Positions 3,673 through 49,206 of a DNA stretch of 50,309 bases are shown in pieces. The DNA is from Shigella phage Sfin-3, in the sequence record MN296515; one strand, written 5' to 3'. Each line of letters opens with the position of its first letter. Positions within the stretch are counted from its first letter, which is position 1. The notes beneath the pieces are model-generated. The model did not search any database, was not told the DNA's origin, and saw nothing but the letters and a program-made list of their open reading frames with translations. The translations under genes and the position numbers were made by a program.

Positions 3673-3712
3673 CACGAATTGCTAAAACGTCGGTGGGGTG
3701 ATTTGATATAGT
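3670..3712 (+). promoter_or_regulatory. composite promoter module (TAGCA-cgaat-TGCTA, 22 nt, -10 TATAGT)
   Basis: Palindrome 3670-3684; -10 3707-3712; ATG 3745. Confidence 0.55.
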
Positions 3713-3744
3713 TACCTCATCGACAACGAAGAGAGAAAATCGAA

Positions 3745-5449: not shown

Positions 5450-5459
5450 TAAATACTAA

Positions 5460-5480
5460 CCCGCTACGGCGGGTTTTTTT
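5460..5480 (+). terminator. rho-independent terminator
   Basis: CCCGC-tacg-GCGGG followed by T7; ends left early gene block. Confidence 0.65.
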
Positions 5481-5500
5481 ATGCCTGCAATATGGTAAAA

Positions 5501-5515
5501 TAGCACTAAATGTTA
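5501..5515 (+). promoter_or_regulatory. degenerate palindrome copy (TAGCA-ctaaa-TGTTA) without 22-nt-spaced -10
   Basis: Sits between terminator 5460-5480 and TerS start; only TATATT 11 nt downstream. Confidence 0.35.
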
Positions 5516-5533
5516 AACAAAGAGGGTATATTT

Positions 5534-11358: not shown

Positions 11359-11373
11359 TTAGCGTTTAATATG

Positions 11374-12187: not shown

Positions 12188-12208
12188 CACAAAAACACTT
12201 TGACGCTT

Positions 12209-12223
12209 TAACAAAAAGTGCTA
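12209..12223 (-). promoter_or_regulatory. orphan palindrome copy, antisense to late operon
   Basis: Minus-strand reading TAGCA-ctttt-TGTTA; no - strand gene downstream; adjacent to terminator 12232-12257. Confidence 0.35.
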
Positions 12224-12231
12224 TTATTGAA

Positions 12232-12257
12232 GCCGTGAACATAATCACGGCTTTTTT
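12232..12257 (+). terminator. rho-independent terminator
   Basis: 7-bp stem GCCGTGA/TCACGGC, loop acataa, then T6. Confidence 0.7.
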
Positions 12258-14838: not shown

Positions 14839-15226
14839 GTTATCAGCGGCGGCGCGAGCCGCTTTTCTATCAAAGTACAGAGACTTTCCTCACTACATGG
14901 AAAACAGAAATTTCATACCGCCGAAGGATGGCGGGATGTGGCTGAGGTTCAACTACATTGAAGGGGATACGCTTTATCTATCCATTGACAGAAAGTGTAA
15001 ATCTTACATCGCAATCGTTCAGATCGGAGTAGTGTTCCCTCCAGGATCCGGCGTTGACGAAGCAAGATTGAAAGCAAAAGAGATTGCTGATTTTTTCAAA
15101 GATGGTAAAATGCTTAACGTTGGTTATATTTTCGAGGGTGCAATCGTGCATCAAATTGTTAAACATGAAAGCGGGTGGATGATTCCGGTTCGCTTTACAG
15201 TACGAGTAGACACAAAGGAGACTTAA
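14828..15226 (+). CDS. putative tail terminator/neck protein
   Basis: 132 aa; immediately upstream of tail tube gene. Confidence 0.45.
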   Translation: MHYELSAAARAAFLSKYRDFPHYMENRNFIPPKDGGMWLRFNYIEGDTLYLSIDRKCKSYIAIVQIGVVFPPGSGVDEARLKAKEIADFFKDGKMLNVGYIFEGAIVHQIVKHESGWMIPVRFTVRVDTKET

Positions 15227-15228
15227 TT

Positions 15229-15897
15229 ATGCACTTACCAAATGGCGCGCAAATTTTCGTGGAAACCTCTCGCGGAGAAGAGATTGAGGCAACCGCTATT
15301 ACTAACGCAGAAAATCCTGTTGCTACAGTTGCATCTAAGGGCGACTTAGTAAAAGGCGATTACGTTATTGTAACTCAGTCAACCTGGGCCAAGATGGTCA
15401 GTCGAGTGCTAATTGTTACTGACGCTCAGGAAACAAGCATCACTCTCGCTGGGATTGACACCTCTGATACTCTTGTTTTCCCGGCTGGCGGTACGATGAG
15501 CTTTGCAAAAATTACTGGCTGGACTGAGATTCCTTGTGTACAGGAGATTGGTAAGGACGGCGGCGAGCAGCAGTATTATACTTATCAGTGCTTGTCCGAC
15601 GATAAAGAACAGCAGATCCCAACGTTTAAATCTGCGATCTCGCTAACTTACACATTCGCGCACGAATTTGATAACCCGATCTACCCTATTCTGCGTAAGC
15701 TGGATTCTTCTGGTCAGGTAACTGCGGTTCGGATGTATGTTCCAAAAGCGAACGAGATGCGCATGTGGGCTGGTATCTTGTCTTTTAACGACATTCCATC
15801 TACGCAAGTAAACGAAATGGAAACGGTACAACTCGCCGTATCACTGAAGGGTGATTTCACTTTCGTTTCATCCGCTCTGGCATCACCTGGTGCCTAA
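15229..15897 (+). CDS. major tail (tube) protein
   Basis: 222 aa; AAGGAG RBS; position before chaperone/tape-measure genes; followed by terminator. Confidence 0.6.
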   Translation: MHLPNGAQIFVETSRGEEIEATAITNAENPVATVASKGDLVKGDYVIVTQSTWAKMVSRVLIVTDAQETSITLAGIDTSDTLVFPAGGTMSFAKITGWTEIPCVQEIGKDGGEQQYYTYQCLSDDKEQQIPTFKSAISLTYTFAHEFDNPIYPILRKLDSSGQVTAVRMYVPKANEMRMWAGILSFNDIPSTQVNEMETVQLAVSLKGDFTFVSSALASPGA

Positions 15898-15909
15898 ATC
15901 ATATCCACA

Positions 15910-15934
15910 GGGGGCTTGCGCCCCCTTATTCATT
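15910..15934 (+). terminator. rho-independent terminator candidate
   Basis: GGGGGC-ttgc-GCCCCC followed by TTATTCATTT (interrupted T-tract); after tail tube gene. Confidence 0.5.
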
Positions 15935-15973
15935 TCTGTAAAATCATCGTATCAAGTTTGCACTATTCTCTTT

Positions 15974-15988
15974 TAACAAAAAGTGCCA
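15974..15988 (-). promoter_or_regulatory. orphan palindrome copy, antisense to late operon
   Basis: Minus-strand reading TGGCA-ctttt-TGTTA between tail tube and chaperone genes; 22 nt then TACGAT on minus strand. Confidence 0.35.
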
Positions 15989-16010
15989 TTAACCAATCAG
16001 GAGAAATATC

Positions 16011-16328
16011 ATGGCTAAATTTAATTTCGTTCTTGGTCAACTTCCAGACTTCAAACTTCCAGTCACCTTCACCATGCCTAACGGTGAAGATGCAACGATC
16101 ATTTTCACTGTACGCCACCTTTCCAGTAAAGAAGTTCAGGATATGTATGCCAACCAGGGAGAAATGAACGACAGCGAGTTCATTACCAAGATCGCGTCAG
16201 GATGGAACCTTGAAGAAGAATTTAACGAAGAAAATGCGCGAAAACTGGTTCAGTATTATCCTTCAGCAGCGTACAACCTGACAGCAACTTACATCAAGGC
16301 TCTCGCCGGACACCGCGCAAAAAACTAA
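16011..16328 (+). CDS. tail assembly chaperone (lambda gpG-like)
   Basis: 105 aa immediately upstream of tape measure; ends at slippery heptamer A-AAA-AAC. Confidence 0.7.
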   Translation: MAKFNFVLGQLPDFKLPVTFTMPNGEDATIIFTVRHLSSKEVQDMYANQGEMNDSEFITKIASGWNLEEEFNEENARKLVQYYPSAAYNLTATYIKALAGHRAKN

Positions 16329-16645
16329 AAAGGGCGGTCTATCTGTTATATCAGAAGCCGCCAACAGAGGAACAATTGCGATCGGTTGGTTTAAGTCTTT
16401 CCGACTATGAAGACGAGGAACCTGAAACGATAATTGGCGACGCTGAAATGGTGAAGGCTTGGAATGTTTTTACATCAATGCTCACTCAGTGGAGAAGTTC
16501 AGGCGCTGGCGCTTATGGTCTTGACTATAATGTTTTGCCTATGTTGTTTAAAATCTATAAAATAGAAGATGAAGAACTGGCATTGCAGGACGTTAGGATC
16601 ATGGAAGCGAAAGCGCTTGAAATGATTGCTAAGCAGAATAACTAA
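16011..16645 (+). CDS. tail assembly chaperone, -1 frameshift fusion product (lambda gpGT-like)
   Basis: -1 frame is open from slippery site 16319-16325 to TAA 16643-16645; frame phase of downstream ORF matches a -1 shift. Confidence 0.55.
16319..16325 (+). other. -1 programmed ribosomal frameshift slippery heptamer A-AAA-AAC
   Basis: Zero-frame codons GCA-AAA-AAC-TAA; -1 frame stays open for 107 codons to 16645. Confidence 0.6.
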
Positions 16646-16647
16646 GC

Positions 16648-16665
16648 CGCCGTCTGGCGTTTTTT
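16648..16665 (+). terminator. weak terminator candidate
   Basis: 4-bp stem CGCC/GGCG then T6, just upstream of tape measure gene. Confidence 0.3.
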
Positions 16666-16683
16666 GTATATAAGGGGGGTTAT

Positions 16684-19557
16684 ATGGTTGATAAGGTAGC
16701 AGGTCTATCGCTTGACGTTGATGTGTCGACAGTGCAGCGCGCCGTCAAGTCATTGAAAGAGTTTTCAAAAGCTAACGACCAAGCCGCTGACTCTATGGGG
16801 TCTTTAATCAATGAGGCCGAGGTTGCAAAACAGAAGGCTAAAGAACACGCTGAGCAACTTAAGCGCCAGCGCAAAGAGTACGAGGCTGTAGAAAAGGCAA
16901 TCGATCCTACAGTATCAAAAATGGAAAGGCTGAAGATTGCATCTCAGCAGCTTGATAAACTCTGGCAAAAGGGTGTTGTTCCAGATGAAACATTTTTCCG
17001 TTTGGGTGAAATGCTGGACATGCAAAATGCAAAACTTGCTCGCAGCCGAGCCATGCTTACTGAAGAGGGGCAGGCAGCATTGCAGGAAGCGAAAGCAAAA
17101 GAGCAGGCAGCAGCGAAAAACAAAGCGTTCATGGATTCCCTGAACAGTCAGGTTAACGCTATTGGCAAAACTCACGCAGAGTTAATGGAACTGAAAGCGG
17201 CTCAGCTTGGACTATCAAATGAAGCAGCGCCACTGATCGCAAAACTGAAAGAGCAGGGTCGAGCCATGAATGCCGCAGGTATTAGCGCGGGGCAATATAG
17301 GCAGGCAATGCGAATGCTTCCTGCACAGATTACCGACGTCGTTACATCTCTTGCGTCCGGTATGCCAGTTTGGATGGTTGCCATCCAGCAAGGCGGTCAA
17401 ATCAAGGACTCGTTCGGCGGGATCGGGAATACGTTTAAGGTATTGCTCAGCTATATTAATCCGGTCACAGTTGGTGTTGGTGTTCTTGTCGGCTCTTTAG
17501 GTCTTCTTGCGAAAGCTGGTTATGACTCTTACAAGTCAATAACTGATATGCAGAAGGCTCTTGTTGAGACTGGAGGTTATGCAGGAGTCACGGCTGAAGA
17601 ACTTGATTCTGTTGCTAAAAAGGTGTCTCAGACGAGCAATTCAACAATTTCAAGCATTCGTGAGATTGTTACTGAACTTGCCAGTACGGGGAAGTATACG
17701 CGAGAGCAGATTCAGAACATCACAAAGGCTACCGCTGAGTGGTCGACAGCAACCGGTAAATCAGCAAGTAAAATCATCGCTGAGTTCGATAAAATCGCAA
17801 GCGATCCTGTAAAGGGTCTGGCTAAACTTAACGAGCAATACAACTTTTTAGAAAAAGGGCAACTGACATATATCGATACGCTAAGCCGCACTAAGGGTGA
17901 AACAGAGGCAGTGTCTGAAGCCACGAAATTATTCGCCGATGTAATGGAAAAACGAATGAAGTCGATCGCTGATAATGCTACCCCTCTGGAAAAAATGTGG
18001 AACGATATTAAGCAGTGGGCCTCTGATGCGTGGGGGTGGGTTGGGGATCATACTCTCGGAGCATTAAACCTGATTATTGACGTAGTTCAGGGTACGGTAA
18101 TTCAGGTAAAAATGATTCTGGCGAAGGGTGATGAGTACATCTCAAACTTTATAGCCTCTGCAATTAAGGCTACGCAGTCTCTGCCTGGAATGAGTGATTT
18201 CGGCGCTGATGTACTGAAGGAGCAGGAGAACATCGTAAAAAGTTCTCGCGACAACTACGATCAGTTGGCTTCAGAGCTTGATGCCATCAACGCTCGTGTA
18301 GAAAAAGGCGAGATGGGATACATTGAAGCAATGAGGCAGCGTCGCACTCTTGAAAAGCAGTACAGCGAGGAAACTAAGGAAGCAATAAGGAAAGAAGCAG
18401 AAGAGATCGAGAAGCGAAACCGAGAACGAAATAAGCAGTCGAAAATTGTACGCTCACCGACAGAGCAATTCGACAAGGAGTTAATTTCACTCAAGGCTCA
18501 ACTTAAGGTATTGCAGGAGCACAAGGAGATCGGGCAAAAACTTTCCGCACAGAGAAAAGCGCTGTTTACGACCGAGGCAACGATTGCTGTTCTTCGTGAA
18601 GCCAGTTCTAAGCGTCAGTTGTCTGCGGAAGAAAAAGCGTTGCTGGCAAGTCAGGAGAGAGTTATTGAGCTTGCAAAACAGAAGGCCGAGATTGGCGATC
18701 AGATTGTTAAGCAACAACAGTTGAATGATCTTACCGATAAATCTCTGAAGTTTGTCAATGAGATGACGGCGGCGACAGAACAGCTTAACGCGTCACGCGG
18801 TCTTAGCACGCGCGAGATGGAACGACAAGCGGAACTGGCTAAAATAACCACTGATTACATCAACTCTGGAGGTAGTGAGGGAGACGAAAAACTCCAGAAC
18901 ATGATTAAGGCGCAAAATGATTACTATGCTGCGGAAGATGCCAAGCGCGCTGACTGGTTAGCTGGTGCTGAAAGCGCATTTGCAGATTACGGCGATTCTG
19001 CAATGGATATGTACGGCAACGTGTATGATATCGCGTCAAGTTCACTTAACGGAATGAGTGATATGATGACCCAATTCCTGACTACAGGTAAGGCAAACTT
19101 TGAGGACTTTGCGAAAAACATCATTAGCATGATTATAAAGATGATTGCTCAGATGGTAATCTTCAATACGATCTCAGGCATGATGGGCGGTAAGACGTGG
19201 AGCTTTGCTGGAGTGGCGTCGTCTGGTGCTTCTGCGGCATCACAGGCAACCCCTACGCCTGCCGCCTCCGGTTTTAGGTCTTTATCATCTGGCGTTGCTG
19301 TTACCTCGCTTGCTGCCGCAGCTGGTAGTGTGGCAACATCTGGATTTAACGCATCTAAAGCAGCGCCGAAGGCAGTAAACCAATCAGCAGGTGGGACGGT
19401 CGTTGACGTTAGGGGCATGGAGGTTAAAGTTGACAATGGTTCAGATCCGAGAGGAATTTCTCAGGGCGTAGAGATGATGTTCAAAAAAATGATTCGCGAG
19501 TCTTGTTCGCAGGGCGGTGAGGTTTACAATTACATTCAGGAGAAAACGGGAGGCTAA
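16684..19557 (+). CDS. tail tape measure protein
   Basis: 957 aa; coiled-coil-rich N-terminal two thirds, hydrophobic segment, Gly/Ala/Ser-rich C-terminus; classic position. Confidence 0.9.
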
Positions 19558-19559
19558 TA

Positions 19560-19913
19560 ATGGCGGCACTTGATACTTTCAGTTGGTGTACGCAGGTTCA
19601 AGGTGGCGGTGGCTCCCTTACCACTACCAACAATGACAGATCCATACAGTTTGGAAACGGCTACATGCAGCTTGCATCATCTGGATTTAACACCACTCGA
19701 CGCGAGTATTCGGTTGTCTACGCTGGGGAGGATTTCATGGCTGTTTACAACTTCTGCGATTCTCACCGCATTAAACCGTTCGCATGGACGCCGCCGGACG
19801 GAAAGATCGGGATATGGGTTGTTAAGCCTAACAGCCTGGGCGCGAAGCCAGTATCACGCGACGTGATGGAGATTAACGTCACGTTTATGGAGCAGTTTAC
19901 ATCTATGGATTAA
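19560..19913 (+). CDS. minor tail protein (lambda gpM-like)
   Basis: 117 aa directly after tape measure; synteny with lambda-like M-L-K-I-J module. Confidence 0.65.
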   Translation: MAALDTFSWCTQVQGGGGSLTTTNNDRSIQFGNGYMQLASSGFNTTRREYSVVYAGEDFMAVYNFCDSHRIKPFAWTPPDGKIGIWVVKPNSLGAKPVSRDVMEINVTFMEQFTSMD

Positions 19914-19929
19914 CGCCACATAACAAAAG

Positions 19930-19951
19930 CCCGCCTTGCGCGGGTTTTTTT
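19930..19951 (+). terminator. rho-independent terminator
   Basis: CCCGC-cttgc-GCGGG then T7; same hairpin sequence as 22108-22130. Confidence 0.65.
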
Positions 19952-19992
19952 GTAGCTGTAGAATGGTTGCAGGTAAACAAGAGGAAAAATCA

Positions 19993-20775
19993 ATGAGCGA
20001 AAACAAAAAACTTTATGATGAAGAAAGCGGAAGAAGCCTGTTTCACAACTGCCTACAATCACTATATCCGGGAGAGATAATCACTCTCATCGAAGTTGAT
20101 GGTAGTAAGTTCGGCGCTCAGGTGTACCGATTCCACGGTGAGAATATCCAGTACACTCCAGAAGAAATCATGCAGGCCCAGCAAACTGGAACGCTACCGC
20201 CGAAGGAAATTACATTCCGTGGCGAGAAATACGGGGCGCGACCTTTCGGTATATCCGGGATCTCATTTGACAGTTCAGGCAAGGCAACAAAACCGCAGTT
20301 GACGGTGGCGAACATTGATAGCAGAGTATCTGCAATGATTCGATCATATAACGGATTGATGCAAGCTAAGGTGACAATCTGGATCACTCAAAAGGACTTA
20401 ATTCAACCTGACGGCTCAATAGCTGACGGCGCTTACCGCAAACTGGTATACTATATCGAACGCCCGAGCTATGTCGATAAGAGCGTCGCCCGATTCGATC
20501 TCACGTCTCCGTATGATATGGATGGCATCATGATCCCGTCTCGACTAACGCAAAGCGTTTGCTATTGGGCGCAGCGGGGATGGTATAAAACCGGGAAAGG
20601 CTGCGGATACAACGGGCAAAACGGTTATTTTGACAAAGACAATAATCCGGTAGACGATCCTGCTTTGGATTTCTGCCCAGGTACGGTAACGGCCTGCCGC
20701 CTTCGATTCGGCGCAAACAATGAACTGGATTTTGGCGGCTGCGCGGTTGCTTCACTACAGAGGAAAAATCAATGA
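19993..20775 (+). CDS. minor tail protein (lambda gpL-like)
   Basis: ATG 19993 with GAGGAAAAA RBS; C-terminal Cys cluster (CGYNG...CPG...CRLRF...GGC) resembles gpL. Confidence 0.7.
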   Translation: MSENKKLYDEESGRSLFHNCLQSLYPGEIITLIEVDGSKFGAQVYRFHGENIQYTPEEIMQAQQTGTLPPKEITFRGEKYGARPFGISGISFDSSGKATKPQLTVANIDSRVSAMIRSYNGLMQAKVTIWITQKDLIQPDGSIADGAYRKLVYYIERPSYVDKSVARFDLTSPYDMDGIMIPSRLTQSVCYWAQRGWYKTGKGCGYNGQNGYFDKDNNPVDDPALDFCPGTVTACRLRFGANNELDFGGCAVASLQRKNQ

Positions 20776-21506
20776 TTAATGCAAAAATTAAACTTGAAAT
20801 CATGACTCACGCTCAAGAAGAATACCCCCGCGAATGCTGCGGGGTAGTTACCCAAAAAGGACGCGTGCAAAAATACCATCGCATTGATAACGTGCATCGC
20901 GATCCTGAGAATCATTTCATGATGGACGCAGTGCAATACGCATGTATTGAGGATGACGCAGACTCAACCACGATTGCGATCGTTCACAGCCACACAGGAG
21001 ACGGGGCTACAACTCTTCCCAGTGCGCACGATACATGCATGTGCAACGAGATGGAAGTTACATGGATTATTGTTAGCGTACCGGAAGGAGATATGCGATT
21101 TGTTAAGCCTGAGAAATTACCTCTGATTGGTCGACCGTGGTCGTTAGGATCATTTGACTGTTACGGGCTAGTAATGGCGTGGCACAAAGAGCACGGCGTA
21201 GAGTTACGCGATCGCCGATTGAATTTTGAATGGTGGAAACCTGAGTACGGAATTAATCTCTATCAGGATTATTACAAGCAAGATGGATTCGTTGAGATTC
21301 CAGATCAGAATAACCCATCATTCGGGGATATGGTAATCATGCAGATAGGGCAAAATGTTCCAGTATGGAACCACGCAGGGATTTACCTGGGTGATAATCA
21401 GATCTTGCATCACGCCTTTGGCAAACTTTCGCGACGTGATATCTATTCCGGCTGGTATCAGGATCATACTGTTTTAATTGTTCGCCATAAGGATCTTAAA
21501 TTATGA
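20772..21506 (+). CDS. tail assembly protein (lambda gpK-like, JAB/MPN + NlpC/P60)
   Basis: 244 aa; N-terminal ...CCGV...HSH..GD (MPN-like) and C-terminal Cys/His papain-like region. Confidence 0.7.
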   Translation: MINAKIKLEIMTHAQEEYPRECCGVVTQKGRVQKYHRIDNVHRDPENHFMMDAVQYACIEDDADSTTIAIVHSHTGDGATTLPSAHDTCMCNEMEVTWIIVSVPEGDMRFVKPEKLPLIGRPWSLGSFDCYGLVMAWHKEHGVELRDRRLNFEWWKPEYGINLYQDYYKQDGFVEIPDQNNPSFGDMVIMQIGQNVPVWNHAGIYLGDNQILHHAFGKLSRRDIYSGWYQDHTVLIVRHKDLKL

Positions 21507-22096
21507 ATGATGTAAAAGTAATCAAATTATCCGGTTCACTTGGAAGGCGCTTCGGCGTCTTTCACAGATTCGCCGTTGACTCTTACCCGGAAGCTATCCG
21601 GGCGCTATCCAGTCAGGTGGATGGATTCAAAGAATATATGCAAAGTGAGGTCGGATCACGTAGCAAGTTTGCAATATTTGTGGATGGCGTTAACGTTGGA
21701 CACCATGAAGAGGAAAAATTCAAGTGTGCCAAAGAGATAAGGATTGTCCCGATCCCGACTGGTTCTAAGTCAGGCGGTCTATTCCAGGTTGTATTGGGTG
21801 CGGCAATAATGGTTGCTGCGTTCTATACTGGCGGCGCATCTCTGGCGTTAATGGGAACAATGTCCTCGTCTCTGTTTATGATGGGCGGCGCTATGGTGCT
21901 GGGCGGCGTGATGCAGATGATTTCACCGCAGCCTGGAGGCGCAAATTTTGAGGTTCAGTCAAGCAAGAATAAACCTTCGTACGCGTTCGGTGGTGCTGTC
22001 AATACTACGGCGCGGGATACCCTCTCCCGGTCCCGTATGGATATCGCGCCGGAGGTGGCGCAACTTTCTCAGCAGGTTCTTATGCCGAGGATATGA
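21503..22096 (+). CDS. tail assembly protein (lambda gpI-like)
   Basis: 197 aa; C-terminal Gly/Ala/Met-rich hydrophobic segment typical of gpI; followed by terminator 22108-22130. Confidence 0.65.
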   Translation: MNDVKVIKLSGSLGRRFGVFHRFAVDSYPEAIRALSSQVDGFKEYMQSEVGSRSKFAIFVDGVNVGHHEEEKFKCAKEIRIVPIPTGSKSGGLFQVVLGAAIMVAAFYTGGASLALMGTMSSSLFMMGGAMVLGGVMQMISPQPGGANFEVQSSKNKPSYAFGGAVNTTARDTLSRSRMDIAPEVAQLSQQVLMPRI

Positions 22097-22107
22097 GTTA
22101 AAATTAA

Positions 22108-22130
22108 CCCGCCTTGCGCGGGTTTTTTTT
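22108..22130 (+). terminator. rho-independent terminator
   Basis: CCCGC-cttgc-GCGGG then T8; just before tail tip gene. Confidence 0.65.
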
Positions 22131-22178
22131 CGCCTGTATAATGAGTCCACCGATAAATAGCACAAAAAGGTAAACATC

Positions 22179-25100
22179 ATGATTCAAAAAGTGATAAGCG
22201 GATCTAAAGGTGGGTCACAGAAGCCTCATAACCCGGTTGAGATGGAGGACAATCTAATCTCAATCAACAAAATCAAGATCCTGTTAGCTGTATCTGATGG
22301 TGAAATTGACGAAACATTCAGCCTAAAGCAGTTGATGTTTAACTCAGTTCCGGTGCAAAACGAGGATGGATCGTTCAACTTCGAAGGGGTGAAGGCAGAG
22401 TTCAGGTCGGGGACGCAGACTCAGGAATATATCAAGGGAATGGAAGATAGCTCTAGTGAGGTAACTGTGAATCGTGAGGTTACTACCGATAATCCATACA
22501 CGATCTCAGTAACCAACAAAACGCTGTCGGCAATCCGTATCAAAATGTTCATGCCTCGCGGCGTACGAATTGAAAATAACGGTGATAAAAATGGCGTAAG
22601 AGTTGAGTATGAGGTGCAACAAGCTGTTGATGGCGGCTCGTTTGAGACGGTGCTCACCGATGTAATCGAAGGCAAAACAATGTCAGGTTACGATCGAAGC
22701 CGTCGCGTAAACCTTCCGAACTTCAACAATCAGGTAATATTCAGAGTTGTTCGAAAGACTCCAGACTCTAACGACTCTAACGTTGTTGATGCGATCCAGG
22801 TAAAGAGTTATGCCGAGGTGATTGATGCCAAATTCCGTTACCCTCTGACAGGTCTTCTTTTCGTCGAGTTCGACTCGAAGATGTTCCCAAACCAGTTACC
22901 TACGATCTCAATTCGTAAGCGCTGGAAGATTGTAAACGTTCCATCAAACTACGATCCGGAATCACGAACCTACAACGGCAATTGGGATGGGACTTTCAAG
23001 AAGGCGTGGACTAACAACCCGGCATGGGTTCTATACGACCTGATGATTAATCAGCGCTACGGGCTGGATCAGAAGGAGCTTGGAATCTCCGTCGATAAAT
23101 GGGCGCTCTATGAGGCGGCGCAATATTGCGACCAGATGGTTCCAGACGGGAAAGGTGGTACGGAGCCTCGCTACCTTTGCGACGTGATAATTCAGTCACA
23201 GACTGATGCGTACAAGGTGATTCGAGATATTTGCTCAATATTCCGTGGTATGAGCTTCTGGAATGGTGAAAGCATCTCGGTAATCATCGACAGACCGCGT
23301 GAGCCTGCGTACATCTTCACTAACGACAACGTTGTTAATGGTGACTTCTCCTATACGTTCGCAAGCGAAAAGAGTATGTACACGACGTGTAACGTGATGT
23401 TTGACGACGAGCAAAACATGTATCAGCAGGACGTTGAGCCAGTATTCGATCGTGAGGCTACTCTACGGTTCGGGAACAACGTAACGAGCATTACAGCGAT
23501 CGGCTGCACACGTCGAAGTGAGGCCAACCGACGCGGGAGATGGATTCTGAAAACTAACCTCCGCAGCACTACGGTAAACTTCGCTACCGGGCTTGAAGGT
23601 ATGATCCCGACAATAGGTGATGTTGTGGCAATAGCCGACAACTTCTGGTCAAGCAACTTGACTATGAACCTATCAGGGCGCTTGCTTGAAGTGTCTGGAA
23701 GCCAGATTTTCTTGCCGTTCCGTGTGGATGCGCGCGCAGGTGACTTTATTATCGTAAATAAGCCCGACGGCAAGCCCGTGAAGCGCACAATCTCAAGTGT
23801 TAGTGCGGATGGTAAGACTATAGAGGTTAACATTGGCTTTGGCTTTCCTGTGAAGCCTAACGCGGTATTCGCTATCGACCGCACCGACATTGCGCTACAA
23901 CAGTACGTCGTGACAAAAATCGATAAGGGCGATGATGACGAGGAATTTACCTACAAAATCACGGCGGTGGAGTACGATCCTAACAAGTACGACGAGATTG
24001 ATTACGGAGTTAACATCGACGACCGACCGACGAGCATCGTTGAACCAGATCAGATCCCTAGACCGGAAAACGTGCAAGTGTCCTCAGAGTCGAGAATCGT
24101 CCAGGGGATGAGCGTAGAAACGATGATTGTTAGCTGGGATAAAGTGCCGTACGCAGTTTTCTATGACGTACAGTGGAGAAAGGATAACGGCAACTGGCAA
24201 AACGTTCCGCAGACAGCAAACAAAGAGGTTTACGTTGAGGGTATTTACGCTGGCAACTATCAGGTTCGCGTTCGCTCCGTAGCTGGTTCCGGTACGACTT
24301 CAGGATGGTCAAATATCGTAGCTGCGACGCTGACGGGCAAACAAGGTGAGCCGGGTCGACCGATTAACCTCACAGCTACGGATGATGTTGTTTTTGGTAT
24401 CCGTACAAAATGGGGGTTCTCTGATGGTTCTGGAGATACGGCCTATACAGAGTTGCAACAGTCACCGGATGGAACGGTTGACAATGCGAGTTTACTCTCT
24501 CTGATCCCGTATCCGCAGCATGAGTATTATCATTCACCGATGCCGGGCGGGAATATTGTGTGGTATCGGGTAAGGACGGTTGATAGGATCGGTAACGTGT
24601 CTCAGTGGACTGATTTTGTCAGAGGTATGGCATCAACAAACGTTGACGATATCATCGGAGAGATTTCTGTCGATATAGAAAACTCGCCGGGCTACAAGTG
24701 GCTTGTTGATAACGCAACAGACAACGCGGCGCAGAACGCAGCTAACGCAGAGGCAGCAATAGAAAACGCGCTCGCCAATGACAAAGACGCGATCTACATG
24801 AAGAAGGAGAACGGAAAACGAAAAGCTGAGTACACGAAATCACTGAAACTTATTGCTGATGAGACGCAGGCACGAGTGACGGCGATCGAGCAATTGAAGG
24901 CAAGTTTTGGAGATCAGATTAGCGCAAGCAACAGCGAATTGCGTGAGGTTATCGCAACCGAGACTGAAGCACTATCGCGTGAGATTGATCAGCTTAAGGC
25001 TCAGATTGGTGACGATATTCAGGCAAGTTTGACTGATATCAGAGAGGCTATAGCAAACGAGGCTGAGGCGAGAACGCAAGCTGACTTGTCATTAAGCGCG

Positions 25101-25598
25101 AGGCTTGGGGATAATGAGGCGGCACTTTCTCAAAAACTTGATTCGTGGAGTAATGCGGATTCGACTGGTGCAATGTACGGCGTCAAGCTGGGTCTGAAGT
25201 ATAACGGCCAAGAATACAGTGCTGGTATGGCTATGTCTCTTATTGGTTCAGGTGCTGCGGTTAAGGCGCAAATTCTATTCGAGGCGTCACGATTTGCAAT
25301 CATGACAGGGATGAACGGTCAGACTCAGTATCCTTTCGTTGTTGAAGGTAATCAGGTGATTCTTAATAGCGCCATCATTAAGAACGGATTCATCACGAAT
25401 GCGATGATTGGAAACTTCATTCAGTCGAATAACTATGTCTTTAACCAGTCCGGATGGAGGCTTGACAAGGGTGGAACATTCGAAAACTACGGAAGTGACG
25501 GTGAGGGTGCAATGAAGCAAACTAATACCACAATATCTGTTAGGGATGCGAGTGGTCGCCTGAGGGTTCAGATTGGCAGGTTGACTGGTTCATGGTAA
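22179..25598 (+). CDS. tail tip / host specificity protein (lambda gpJ-like)
   Basis: 1139 aa; fibronectin-III-like repeats; C-terminal coiled coil and receptor-binding region; classic position. Confidence 0.85.
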   Translation: MIQKVISGSKGGSQKPHNPVEMEDNLISINKIKILLAVSDGEIDETFSLKQLMFNSVPVQNEDGSFNFEGVKAEFRSGTQTQEYIKGMEDSSSEVTVNREVTTDNPYTISVTNKTLSAIRIKMFMPRGVRIENNGDKNGVRVEYEVQQAVDGGSFETVLTDVIEGKTMSGYDRSRRVNLPNFNNQVIFRVVRKTPDSNDSNVVDAIQVKSYAEVIDAKFRYPLTGLLFVEFDSKMFPNQLPTISIRKRWKIVNVPSNYDPESRTYNGNWDGTFKKAWTNNPAWVLYDLMINQRYGLDQKELGISVDKWALYEAAQYCDQMVPDGKGGTEPRYLCDVIIQSQTDAYKVIRDICSIFRGMSFWNGESISVIIDRPREPAYIFTNDNVVNGDFSYTFASEKSMYTTCNVMFDDEQNMYQQDVEPVFDREATLRFGNNVTSITAIGCTRRSEANRRGRWILKTNLRSTTVNFATGLEGMIPTIGDVVAIADNFWSSNLTMNLSGRLLEVSGSQIFLPFRVDARAGDFIIVNKPDGKPVKRTISSVSADGKTIEVNIGFGFPVKPNAVFAIDRTDIALQQYVVTKIDKGDDDEEFTYKITAVEYDPNKYDEIDYGVNIDDRPTSIVEPDQIPRPENVQVSSESRIVQGMSVETMIVSWDKVPYAVFYDVQWRKDNGNWQNVPQTANKEVYVEGIYAGNYQVRVRSVAGSGTTSGWSNIVAATLTGKQGEPGRPINLTATDDVVFGIRTKWGFSDGSGDTAYTELQQSPDGTVDNASLLSLIPYPQHEYYHSPMPGGNIVWYRVRTVDRIGNVSQWTDFVRGMASTNVDDIIGEISVDIENSPGYKWLVDNATDNAAQNAANAEAAIENALANDKDAIYMKKENGKRKAEYTKSLKLIADETQARVTAIEQLKASFGDQISASNSELREVIATETEALSREIDQLKAQIGDDIQASLTDIREAIANEAEARTQADLSLSARLGDNEAALSQKLDSWSNADSTGAMYGVKLGLKYNGQEYSAGMAMSLIGSGAAVKAQILFEASRFAIMTGMNGQTQYPFVVEGNQVILNSAIIKNGFITNAMIGNFIQSNNYVFNQSGWRLDKGGTFENYGSDGEGAMKQTNTTISVRDASGRLRVQIGRLTGSW

Positions 25599-28477: not shown

Positions 28478-28551
28478 ACGGCACAAATAGCTAAACAAAT
28501 AATTAATGAGGTGTTATAATGCACCTCATACACCAATCAGGAGAAGTTAAG

Positions 28552-29199
28552 ATGCAATTATCACCGGAAACAAACGAAATCCTCCCAGCACTGTTTAATG
28601 CTCGCAATAAATTCGCGAAGGCAAAGAAGGACGCTAAAAACAATCACCTGAAGAACTCATACGCAACTCTTGATGCGATGATGGCGGCAGTTAGCCCAGC
28701 GTTAACCGATAACGATATCATGATCCTGCAATCAATGCTGGATACCAGTACAGAAACGACTTTCCATCTTGAAACTATGCTGATTCACAAATCAGGGCAG
28801 TGGGCCAAATTCTTCATGATGATGCCGATTGCAAAACGCGATCCTCAAGGTGTAGGTTCCGCAATGACTTATGCTCGACGCTACTCTCTCGCTGCGGCGC
28901 TTGGTATTAGTCAGAGTGACGACGATGCGCAGCTTGCAGTGAAATCCGTCAAGGACTGGAAAAAAGAACTTGATGCGTGCGAAGATATCGAATCACTGAA
29001 GGATGTATGGGCCAGCGCCTACCGTCAGACTGACACGGCAAGCAAGTCAATCATTCAGGATCACTACAACGCACTTAAGGCTAAGTTTGAGATCGGTAAA
29101 GCTCGTGGTATTCGCCCGGCGCAACCGGAACAGAAAAAACAGGTTGAAGCAACTAGCGCGAAGCCTGTACAATCTCAATCAATCACCAACTTTGAATAA
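28552..29199 (+). CDS. single-strand annealing protein (Erf/Rad52-like)
   Basis: ATG 28552 with ACCAATCAGGAG RBS; position between exonuclease and SSB; call is by context. Confidence 0.5.
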   Translation: MQLSPETNEILPALFNARNKFAKAKKDAKNNHLKNSYATLDAMMAAVSPALTDNDIMILQSMLDTSTETTFHLETMLIHKSGQWAKFFMMMPIAKRDPQGVGSAMTYARRYSLAAALGISQSDDDAQLAVKSVKDWKKELDACEDIESLKDVWASAYRQTDTASKSIIQDHYNALKAKFEIGKARGIRPAQPEQKKQVEATSAKPVQSQSITNFE

Positions 29200-29245: not shown

Positions 29246-29659
29246 ATGCATATTATTACTGGCGAGATCCGAAAAGAACCTAAGATTCTTGAACGTAACG
29301 GCGGGAATACTTATATAATCGAACTGGCAGAGAGCTACAAGCCTCGAGATGGAGATCGAGAATACACCAACTACACATTCTTTTTTAGCGACGGTGGAAA
29401 GCCTGGCCTTGCTGACTGGTATCGTGAAGCGTTCCAGGTTGGTCGCGTCGTATCAGTATCATGCGAGACGTTGAAGATCTCATCACGTGAACACAATGGA
29501 ACGGTTTACAATTCATTGCAGGCCGCTGACTTCCCGAAGTTGGTATTTAGTCAACGAGGACAAAGCAATCAACAACGATCACCGCAGCAACAACAGCGAA
29601 CACAATCACAACCACAGCCAAATCCTCAATCAACTTTCGATGATGATATCCCGTTCTAA
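29246..29659 (+). CDS. ssb: single-stranded DNA-binding protein
   Basis: 137 aa; OB-fold-like N-terminus, Gln/Pro-rich linker, canonical SSB C-terminal tail DDDIPF. Confidence 0.85.
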   Translation: MHIITGEIRKEPKILERNGGNTYIIELAESYKPRDGDREYTNYTFFFSDGGKPGLADWYREAFQVGRVVSVSCETLKISSREHNGTVYNSLQAADFPKLVFSQRGQSNQQRSPQQQQRTQSQPQPNPQSTFDDDIPF

Positions 29660-48115: not shown

Positions 48116-48155
48116 CACGAATTGTTAAAACAGGATCGGGGTATCTTGCTATAGT
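48113..48155 (+). promoter_or_regulatory. composite promoter module (TAGCA-cgaat-TGTTA, 22 nt, -10 TATAGT)
   Basis: Palindrome 48113-48127; -10 48150-48155 inside hairpin 48138-48161; ATG 48194. Confidence 0.55.
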
Positions 48156-48193
48156 TACCCCATCAAAACGAGATACCAATCAGAGGATTCACC

Positions 48194-49136: not shown

Positions 49137-49176
49137 CACTTTTTGTTAAAACTCAATTCCGGGGTTGCGATATAGT
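49134..49176 (+). promoter_or_regulatory. composite promoter module (TAGCA-ctttt-TGTTA, 22 nt, -10 TATAGT)
   Basis: Palindrome 49134-49148; -10 49171-49176 inside hairpin 49161-49182; ATG 49207. Confidence 0.55.
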
Positions 49177-49206
49177 AACCCCATCGATAACGAACGAGGA
49201 TTTATC

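Follow-up and report, generated by a model that had tools for sequence, protein, structure and literature searches.

In the tail gene block of Shigella phage Sfin-3 (MN296515; the window analyzed here is the whole stretch of 50,309 nucleotides, nt), three terminator hairpins are each followed by a hexamer that resembles the -10 element of a bacterial promoter. This arrangement raises the question of whether transcription ends and starts anew at these sites and, if so, what reads them. Sfin-3 belongs to the T1-like phages (family Drexlerviridae), and its tail genes have the lambda-like order V-G-T-H-M-L-K-I-J (Pfam assignment of the flanking genes). The three hairpin/hexamer modules are located at the V/G, M/L and I/J boundaries of the block and are numbered 1 to 3 in that order (Table 1). 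Phage T1 carries the same three intergenic sequences with near base-for-base identity. Judging from the sequence, the three sites are probably compact terminator/promoter overlaps that the host sigma70 RNA polymerase reads.

Anatomy of the three modules

The first-pass annotation of this DNA had placed CTG-TAAAAT, CTG-TAGAAT or CTG-TATAAT after each of three terminators of the tail block, and direct reading of the sequence bore out all coordinates. The motifs were CTGTAAAAT at 15936-15944 (module 1), CTGTAGAAT at 19956-19964 (module 2) and CTGTATAAT at 22134-22142 (module 3), with the hexamer starting 9-13 nt from the end of the stem. Matches to the -10 consensus were 5/6 for TAAAAT, 5/6 for TAGAAT and 6/6 for TATAAT. 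That annotation had seen no recognisable -35 at any of the sites, which proved mistaken: a pattern search found TTGCGC at all three, in each case exactly 17 nt 5′ of the hexamer, and 17 nt is the optimal -35/-10 spacing for sigma70. Each hairpin loop reads (C)TTGC. The -35-like hexamer therefore lies within the loop and 3′ arm of the terminator, the two elements share nucleotides at all three sites, and the U-run forms the promoter spacer.

The three sites ranked 10th, 22nd and 29th among 100,546 positions on both strands when scored with an approximate textbook sigma70 weight matrix. A consensus promoter scan demanding at least 4/6 in the -35 passed over all three, because their -35 match is 3/6. 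The sequence CTGTANAAT occurred four times in the window (1.7 expected), and three of the four copies sit directly 3′ of terminator hairpins; neither CTGTANAAT nor TGTANAAT was enriched genome-wide, so that the signal is one of position and not of count. From the usual 7-nt distance, transcription starts are predicted near A15951, A19971 and A22149. The predicted leaders would extend about 60 nt to the chaperone ATG at 16011, about 22 nt to the L ATG at 19993 and about 30 nt to the J ATG at 22179.

The stems of the hairpins are GC-rich, have 5-7 pairs, start 11-17 nt past the stop codons of V, M and I, and are co-directional with the genes. Folding gave minimum free energies of -12.8 to -14.6 kcal/mol (z from -1.8 to -3.5). 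Two of the terminators had been said to share an identical hairpin, and the 15-mer CCCGCCTTGCGCGGG was indeed present exactly twice in the window, at modules 2 and 3, the expected number of copies at up to two mismatches being 0.07. In module 3 this 15-mer (22108-22122) is the core of a hairpin extended by A-U pairs to 22106-22124. The U-tract of module 1 (15927-15935, UUAUUCAUUU) is poor in Sfin-3 and T1, and most other lineages have U6-7 there. A scan against Rfam returned just two chance-level matches (E about 0.8, far under the gathering scores).

T1 belongs to the same phage group, its intergenic regions are nearly identical, and its GenBank record annotates the three terminators but no promoter features. 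In the 2024 reannotation of phage TLS, the homologous terminators are T42, T46 and T49, with T46 at the module 2 site and T49 at the module 3 site; both of these sites are also annotated terminators in T1.

The TG of CTG-TAnAAT adjoins the hexamer at -14/-13. In the canonical extended -10, TG lies at -15/-14, with one base between TG and the hexamer (contacts of sigma70 region 3.0); the Sfin-3 motifs are one base off this register, and no TGn precedes them. In common with the canonical element (TGnTATAAT), the sites have a good -10, a TG close to it and a weak -35. The canonical TGn does occur at M/L and I/J in some relatives (TGC-TATAAT, TGA-TACAAT).

Conservation of the spacing and the control terminators

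A single-protein query gave only near-identical phages, and an alignment of gpM homologues was needed to span the family. The comparison set comprised 88 related Drexlerviridae loci, 80 of them from viral contigs obtained through that alignment, and ranged from near-identical down to about 46% protein identity. A module was scored when a hairpin with a T(T/A)G loop was followed by a -10-like hexamer at 15-19 nt. Only unique intergenic sequences were counted, and the regions were delimited on homologue-match boundaries.

The module was present in 57 of the 63 unique V/G regions (spacer of 17 nt in 39 and 16 nt in 18), in 46 of the 56 M/L regions (17 nt in 43, 16 nt in two and 18 nt in one) and in 67 of the 71 I/J regions, where the spacer was 17 nt in all 67. 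Thus, the spacer was 17 nt in 149 sites, 16 nt in 20 and 18 nt in one, and 169 of the 170 unique family sites had 16 or 17 nt. The typical layout, seen in nearly every lineage, was a loop TTG (or TAG), 16-17 nt, and TAnAAT. The hexamer and the loop TTG were conserved, whereas the linker and the downstream leader diverged. Because the hexamers are kept in lineages with only about 65% DNA identity while the flanking linker changes, their conservation reflects selection and not chance.

The spacing is held by compensating changes in length. At I/J, the 3′-arm remainder, T-run and linker measured (3,8,6), (4,6,7), (3,9,5), (3,6,8), (2,6,9), (3,7,7), (6,5,6) and (7,4,6). All eight partitions sum to 17 and shuffled components never matched this result (permutation p below 5e-5), and six of eight partitions at V/G (p=3.5e-4) and four of seven at M/L (p=0.025) also sum to 17; the partitions are phylogenetically non-independent, so that these p-values are indicative only.

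Rogue1-like V/G sites have the loop TTCACA, 16 nt and TATAAT, and two lineages that lost the loop TTG at M/L (TCGCGC) have a canonical TGn extended -10. These element swaps look like promoter logic. A hairpin was found in every lineage despite differing arms (GGGGGC/GCCCCC, GGGGAAG/CTTCCCC, GGCGGGGC/GCCTCGCC), a conservation that is based on per-sequence hairpins, since consensus folding of the promoter-anchored alignments gave weak or mis-registered stems. Some of the family loops are G(CUUG)C tetraloops, and CUUG is a known stable loop class. Just before the hexamer, the G at -13 was near-invariant and a T at -14 was common among the family sites. Many I/J relatives have CCG before the hexamer and lack the TG.

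These patterns bear on a different view of the promoters, which is also that of the first-pass annotation: the hexamers would work without a -35, as extended -10-like promoters or with the help of a phage late activator, and the hairpin would be a terminator only. A -35-less promoter would put no constraint on the spacing to the hairpin loop, yet the TTG stands exactly 17 nt off at all three sites, and this distance is held in the family by compensating indels. The almost invariant G at -13 and the common T at -14 speak for such promoters, but the TG is at -14/-13 and not at -15/-14, and many I/J sites do without it. The weak -35 match (3/6) also agrees with this view, as do the late class of the genes, the unexplained mechanism of late timing in T1, and the copies of an ATAGCAC box near modules 1 and 3, which could bind a phage regulator. 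As for a T4-type late promoter, no gene for a sigma factor or an RNA polymerase has been reported in the family (PMC11447400); the window was not screened for activators. We consider -35-independent initiation unlikely, and the claim of independence from a -35 does not hold up against the TTGCGC at 17 nt in all three sites and the family-wide maintenance of that spacing.

Terminators that lack a promoter served as controls. At the GT/H boundary, between the chaperone frameshift product and the tape measure gene, the terminator was directly followed by the ribosome-binding site (RBS) in every lineage of the 88 loci. Its loops were UACG, UUCG, GUUU or GUCU, with TTG in only one of 41 unique versions, and no hexamer followed. 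None of the other terminators in the window combined a loop TTG with a -10 at 16-18 nt, and the late-region terminators at 11373, 13245, 13582, 25603 and 26637 have neither a loop TTG nor a downstream hexamer and run straight into the next RBS. Because the control terminators have neither element, the loop TTG and the downstream -10 either co-occur or are both absent. The three module regions also have an extra 20-60 nt ahead of the RBS when compared with the promoter-less sites. A hairpin at 16646-16665 followed by TATATA was considered as a fourth module and rejected: about 10 nt separate its loop from the hexamer, which adjoins the RBS.

The same controls tell against the view that the hairpins are terminators or 3′ mRNA stabilisers only, with the hexamers and the loop TTG arising as by-products and no initiation taking place. 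AT-rich sequence past terminators and a preference for CUUG-type loops could supply TAnAAT and TTG, respectively. The lack of genome-wide enrichment of CTGTANAAT, the G(CUUG)C tetraloops, and the other late-region terminators with no promoter after them all fit this explanation. By-products, however, would not be expected to keep the hexamer while linker and downstream sequence diverge, or to fix the spacing to the loop TTG at 17; nor does the explanation fit the UNCG loops and missing hexamer of the promoter-less GT/H terminator, or the extra 20-60 nt before the RBS in the three regions alone. We give this explanation little credence. It is very improbable that the hexamers are sigma70-dependent pause sites for elongating polymerase that aid termination or factor loading, as at lambda pR′: they do lie in transcribed DNA just past a terminator, and -10-like elements in such DNA can pause a sigma-retaining polymerase (lambda pR′, Q), but a pause site has no need for a -35 at a fixed 17 nt, the spacing that is conserved best of all; any upstream promoter is many kilobases away, a distance at which sigma retention is low; and no Q-like antiterminator came up, none having been searched for.

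Individual relatives depart from the common layout. In one close relative (L020, IMGVR_UViG_2974611450_000001), the I/J hairpin is disrupted (CCCGCTCCGCATTCA), so that the terminator and the -35 are lost while CTGTATAAT is retained; the same relative has small insertions in the V/G loop and in the M/L leader. These changes could be real decay or assembly errors. In other relatives, extra genes are inserted 3′ of the terminator at M/L (L037), I/J (L081, L083, L024, L025) or V/G (L080, L081), and some of the inserted open reading frames (ORFs) are putative HNH-endonuclease-like genes. The inserts carry promoters of their own, for example TTGACC-17-TATTAT in L037 and, in L080 and L081, one with an ATAGCAC box. 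Extra genes thus seem to be inserted preferentially at the modules.

Predicted mechanism, opposing evidence and prior work

Terminator/re-initiation couples, as first proposed for these sites, are the best reading of the conserved hexamers, the -35 at 17 nt and the family-wide layout. The pairing of termination with re-initiation is supported, and the independence from a -35 falls. From the anatomy, the family-wide conservation and the held 17-bp (base pair) spacing that we observed, we infer termination and initiation, their efficiencies and their timing along the following lines. In the RNA, the GC hairpin and U-run would end the upstream transcript, at least partly. In the DNA, the same segment would provide the -35, with TTG from the loop and CGC from the 3′ arm. 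Together with the TAnAAT -10 at 17 bp further, it would direct a new transcript to start about 7 nt later. This predicted start is beyond the terminator, so that the new transcript would escape termination. The tail module would be split into short units, a first one ending in V, followed by G-GT-H-M, L-K-I and J, and the expression of each unit would reflect the strength of the local promoter plus read-through from upstream.

The host sigma70 is the expected reader, because the TLS study found no RNA polymerase or sigma factor of phage origin (PMC11447400). The sequence is compatible with a need for a late activator and with no such need. The first-pass annotation had suggested that the couples set stoichiometry along the tail operon; such a role is plausible for V/G only, where far more tube protein is required than of the tail proteins encoded downstream.

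Several points weigh against terminator/promoter overlaps read by sigma70. The -35 matches the consensus at only three of six positions, TTG core included, the U-tract of module 1 is weak, and the permutation values are subject to the phylogenetic dependence described above. A sigma70 promoter would be expected to be active as soon as infection begins, which leaves the late timing unexplained. Promoter-less late terminators exist (11373, 13245, 13582, 25603); read-through or antitermination must therefore occur there, and the module promoters may be dispensable. They probably supplement, and do not replace, transcription from upstream. The 2024 TLS reannotation, which used a promoter rule of at most two mismatches, has no promoter at the homologous sites, and its authors were unable to confirm transcriptons in TLS (PMC11447400). 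Our literature searches found no 5′/3′ end mapping or transcriptomics for any T1-like phage.

The terminator/re-initiation idea is already in print for T1: the late "transcriptons" are credited to the T1 genome paper (Roberts, Martin and Kropinski 2004) by the TLS study (PMC11447400). The -35-in-loop geometry and the family-wide 17-nt spacing were stated nowhere in the literature searched. What the present comparison adds is this geometry with its maintained 17-bp spacing, and family-wide evidence of selection on the sites. The gain is incremental, since the idea is known for T1 and bacterial precedents exist. In bacterial interoperon overlaps, an upstream terminator overlaps the -35/-10 promoter of the next unit, with long-range conservation; the overlaps were proposed to couple or regulate expression, and tufB-secE is experimentally supported (2019, PMC6735719). 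Those overlaps are chromosomal and join ribosomal/translation operons, whereas here three or more copies, known from sequence only, occur in one phage morphogenesis block. A feature annotated as a "promoter" in phage EC3a is inside a coding sequence and was set aside as irrelevant.

The lambda late operon has the same tail gene order, V-G-T-H-M-L-K-I-J, and its late block is a single antiterminated transcript (pR′, Q). Unlike lambda, the Drexlerviridae have terminator/promoter modules that interrupt the block at V/G, M/L and I/J. If the modules work as inferred, the tail genes of T1-like phages would form a chain of short host-polymerase units and not one antiterminated transcript. Standard promoter finders miss such sites because the -35 is only 3/6, as did our consensus scan and the 2024 TLS reannotation. 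The cassettes would also matter for engineering, since swaps of J or of the tip module in Drexlerviridae therapy phages should then retain an intact intergenic cassette, and they would form a natural system, present in several copies, in which to study terminator-promoter coupling in vivo.

Because the -35 lies inside the terminator, a polymerase that releases its RNA at the U-run would already be on the next promoter and could re-initiate there by one-dimensional diffusion, a hand-off that we regard as doubtful. Polymerase has been seen to stay on the DNA after intrinsic termination and to start again from a promoter close by (Kang et al. 2020, PMC6978380). That work was in vitro and single-molecule, on artificial templates, and its authors describe the behavior as unobserved in vivo (PMC6978380), so that it offers only a possible mechanism here. 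Were the hand-off true, promoters with a weak -35 would fire mainly when upstream late transcription delivers polymerase, and such a relay would give late timing and fixed unit-to-unit ratios without a late activator.

Feature coordinates, ATAGCAC boxes and other promoter-like sites

Table 1. Genes, terminators and promoter elements at the three tail-block modules of Sfin-3 (window positions).
Feature	Coordinates	Strand	Evidence and remarks
Tail tube protein gene (lambda V / T1 gp41 equivalent)	15175..15897	+	Pfam Phage_tail_3, E=4e-70; T1 annotation; 5′ of module 1
Module 1 hairpin, AGGGGGC-TTGC-GCCCCCT	15909..15926	+	Minimum free energy -14.6 kcal/mol, z=-3.5; homologous T1 site annotated as terminator
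Module 1 -35-like TTGCGC, loop and 3′ arm of hairpin	15916..15921	+	17 nt 5′ of -10
Module 1 -10 hexamer TAAAAT, preceded by CTG	15939..15944	+	sigma70 matrix rank 29; TAAAAT/TAGAAT/TAATAT/CATAAT in relatives
Tail assembly chaperone gene (lambda G equivalent)	16011..16328	+	Pfam Phage_TAC_4, E=5.5e-37; first gene past module 1
Minor tail protein M gene	19560..19913	+	Pfam Phage_min_tail, E=5.8e-26; 5′ of module 2
Module 2 terminator, hairpin CCCGC-CUUGC-GCGGG (19930-19944) and U7 (19945-19951)	19930..19951	+	Minimum free energy -14.0 kcal/mol
Module 2 -35-like TTGCGC, loop and 3′ arm of hairpin	19936..19941	+	17 nt 5′ of -10
Module 2 -10 hexamer TAGAAT	19959..19964	+	sigma70 matrix rank 22; kept across the family
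Tail tip genes L (19993-20775), K (20772-21506) and I (21503-22096)	19993..22096	+	Between modules 2 and 3; Pfam Phage_tail_L (L), Prok-JAB and NLPC_P60 (K), Lambda_tail_I (I)
Module 3 terminator, hairpin AACCCGC-CUUGC-GCGGGUU (22106-22124) and U8 (22123-22130)	22106..22130	+	Minimum free energy -12.8 kcal/mol, z=-2.8
Module 3 -35-like TTGCGC, loop and 3′ arm of hairpin	22114..22119	+	17 nt 5′ of -10
Module 3 -10 hexamer TATAAT, full consensus	22137..22142	+	sigma70 matrix rank 10
Degenerate 21-nt ATAGCAC box (aaATAGCACaaaaagGTAAAc) in predicted J leader, overlapping the RBS	22155..22175	+	DR8 in TLS; A(T/C)AGCACAAAAGGTTAAAA in relatives
Tail tip/host specificity protein J gene	22179..25598	+	Pfam FNIII-A_GpJ, Phage-tail_3, Phage_Tail_Tip; 3′ of module 3

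The heptamer ATAGCAC was about 4-fold over-represented in the window (23 copies, 5.6 expected), and its orientation was almost always that of the early genes. Starts include 1854, 2374, 3669, 35544, 47372, 48112 and 49133 on the + strand and 46438, 45330, 44865, 43513, 42998, 42498 and 40336 on the - strand. The 21-nt box of which it forms the core is aaATAGCACnnnTTGnTAAAA. For most + strand boxes, the distance to a downstream TAtAgT-like -10 is fixed at 22 nt, and a TGn often precedes this -10. The TTGnTA of the box was considered as a -35 at 17-18 nt and rejected, since the measured distance of 22 nt is too far for a canonical -35. In TLS the box is listed as a "direct repeat" and its function is left open (PMC11447400). 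Besides the copy in the predicted J leader (Table 1), the predicted leader of the chaperone gene, 3′ of the module 1 promoter, has an inverted and slightly degenerate box, TTTTAACAAAAAGTGCCAT, at 15971-15989; T1 and most relatives have an intact copy (GTGCTAT) there.

At the early promoters (approximately 1875-1900, 2395-2420, 3690-3715, 48135-48160 and 49155-49180), a short GC-rich inverted repeat often has the -10 in its loop or next to it. The arms vary (GGGCAT..ATGCCC, GGGGAAT..ATTCCCC, GGGGTA..TACCCC), and because they differ between copies, a structure is favoured over a sequence-specific operator. On the opposite strand, the hairpin followed by TTTTAACAAAAAG resembles a terminator facing the promoter.

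The module logic appears to recur at two other sites of the late region, terS and the major capsid gene. Upstream of terS, the first gene of the packaging/structural block, there is a terminator at 5458-5475 (AACCCGC-TACG-GCGGGTT and U7), past which GCCTG-CAATAT resembles module 3. Further downstream are TGGTAAAAT, which is a canonical extended -10, and then an ATAGCAC box abutting the RBS (terS region 5458-5530). This terS-proximal site is probably the main late promoter. Just 5′ of the major capsid gene, TTGACG-16-TATTAT at 12200-12227, among the best sigma70 matches of the window (rank 6), has TGc before the -10, overlaps an inverted ATAGCAC box, and is immediately followed by a terminator-like hairpin at 12229-12254. 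The predicted start is inside the 5′ arm of this hairpin, so that transcripts from it would lack the full hairpin. The capsid promoter site is conserved in T1; in Klebsiella phage Shelby the order is reversed, with the terminator first and the TTGACG promoter after it.

The fourth copy of CTGTANAAT (CTGTACAAT, 29165-29173) has TTGAAG 18 nt upstream and a sigma70 rank of 14. It lies at the 3′ end of the ORF at 28519-29199, upstream of the gene at 29246-29659, and the site at 29140-29173 may be an internal promoter.

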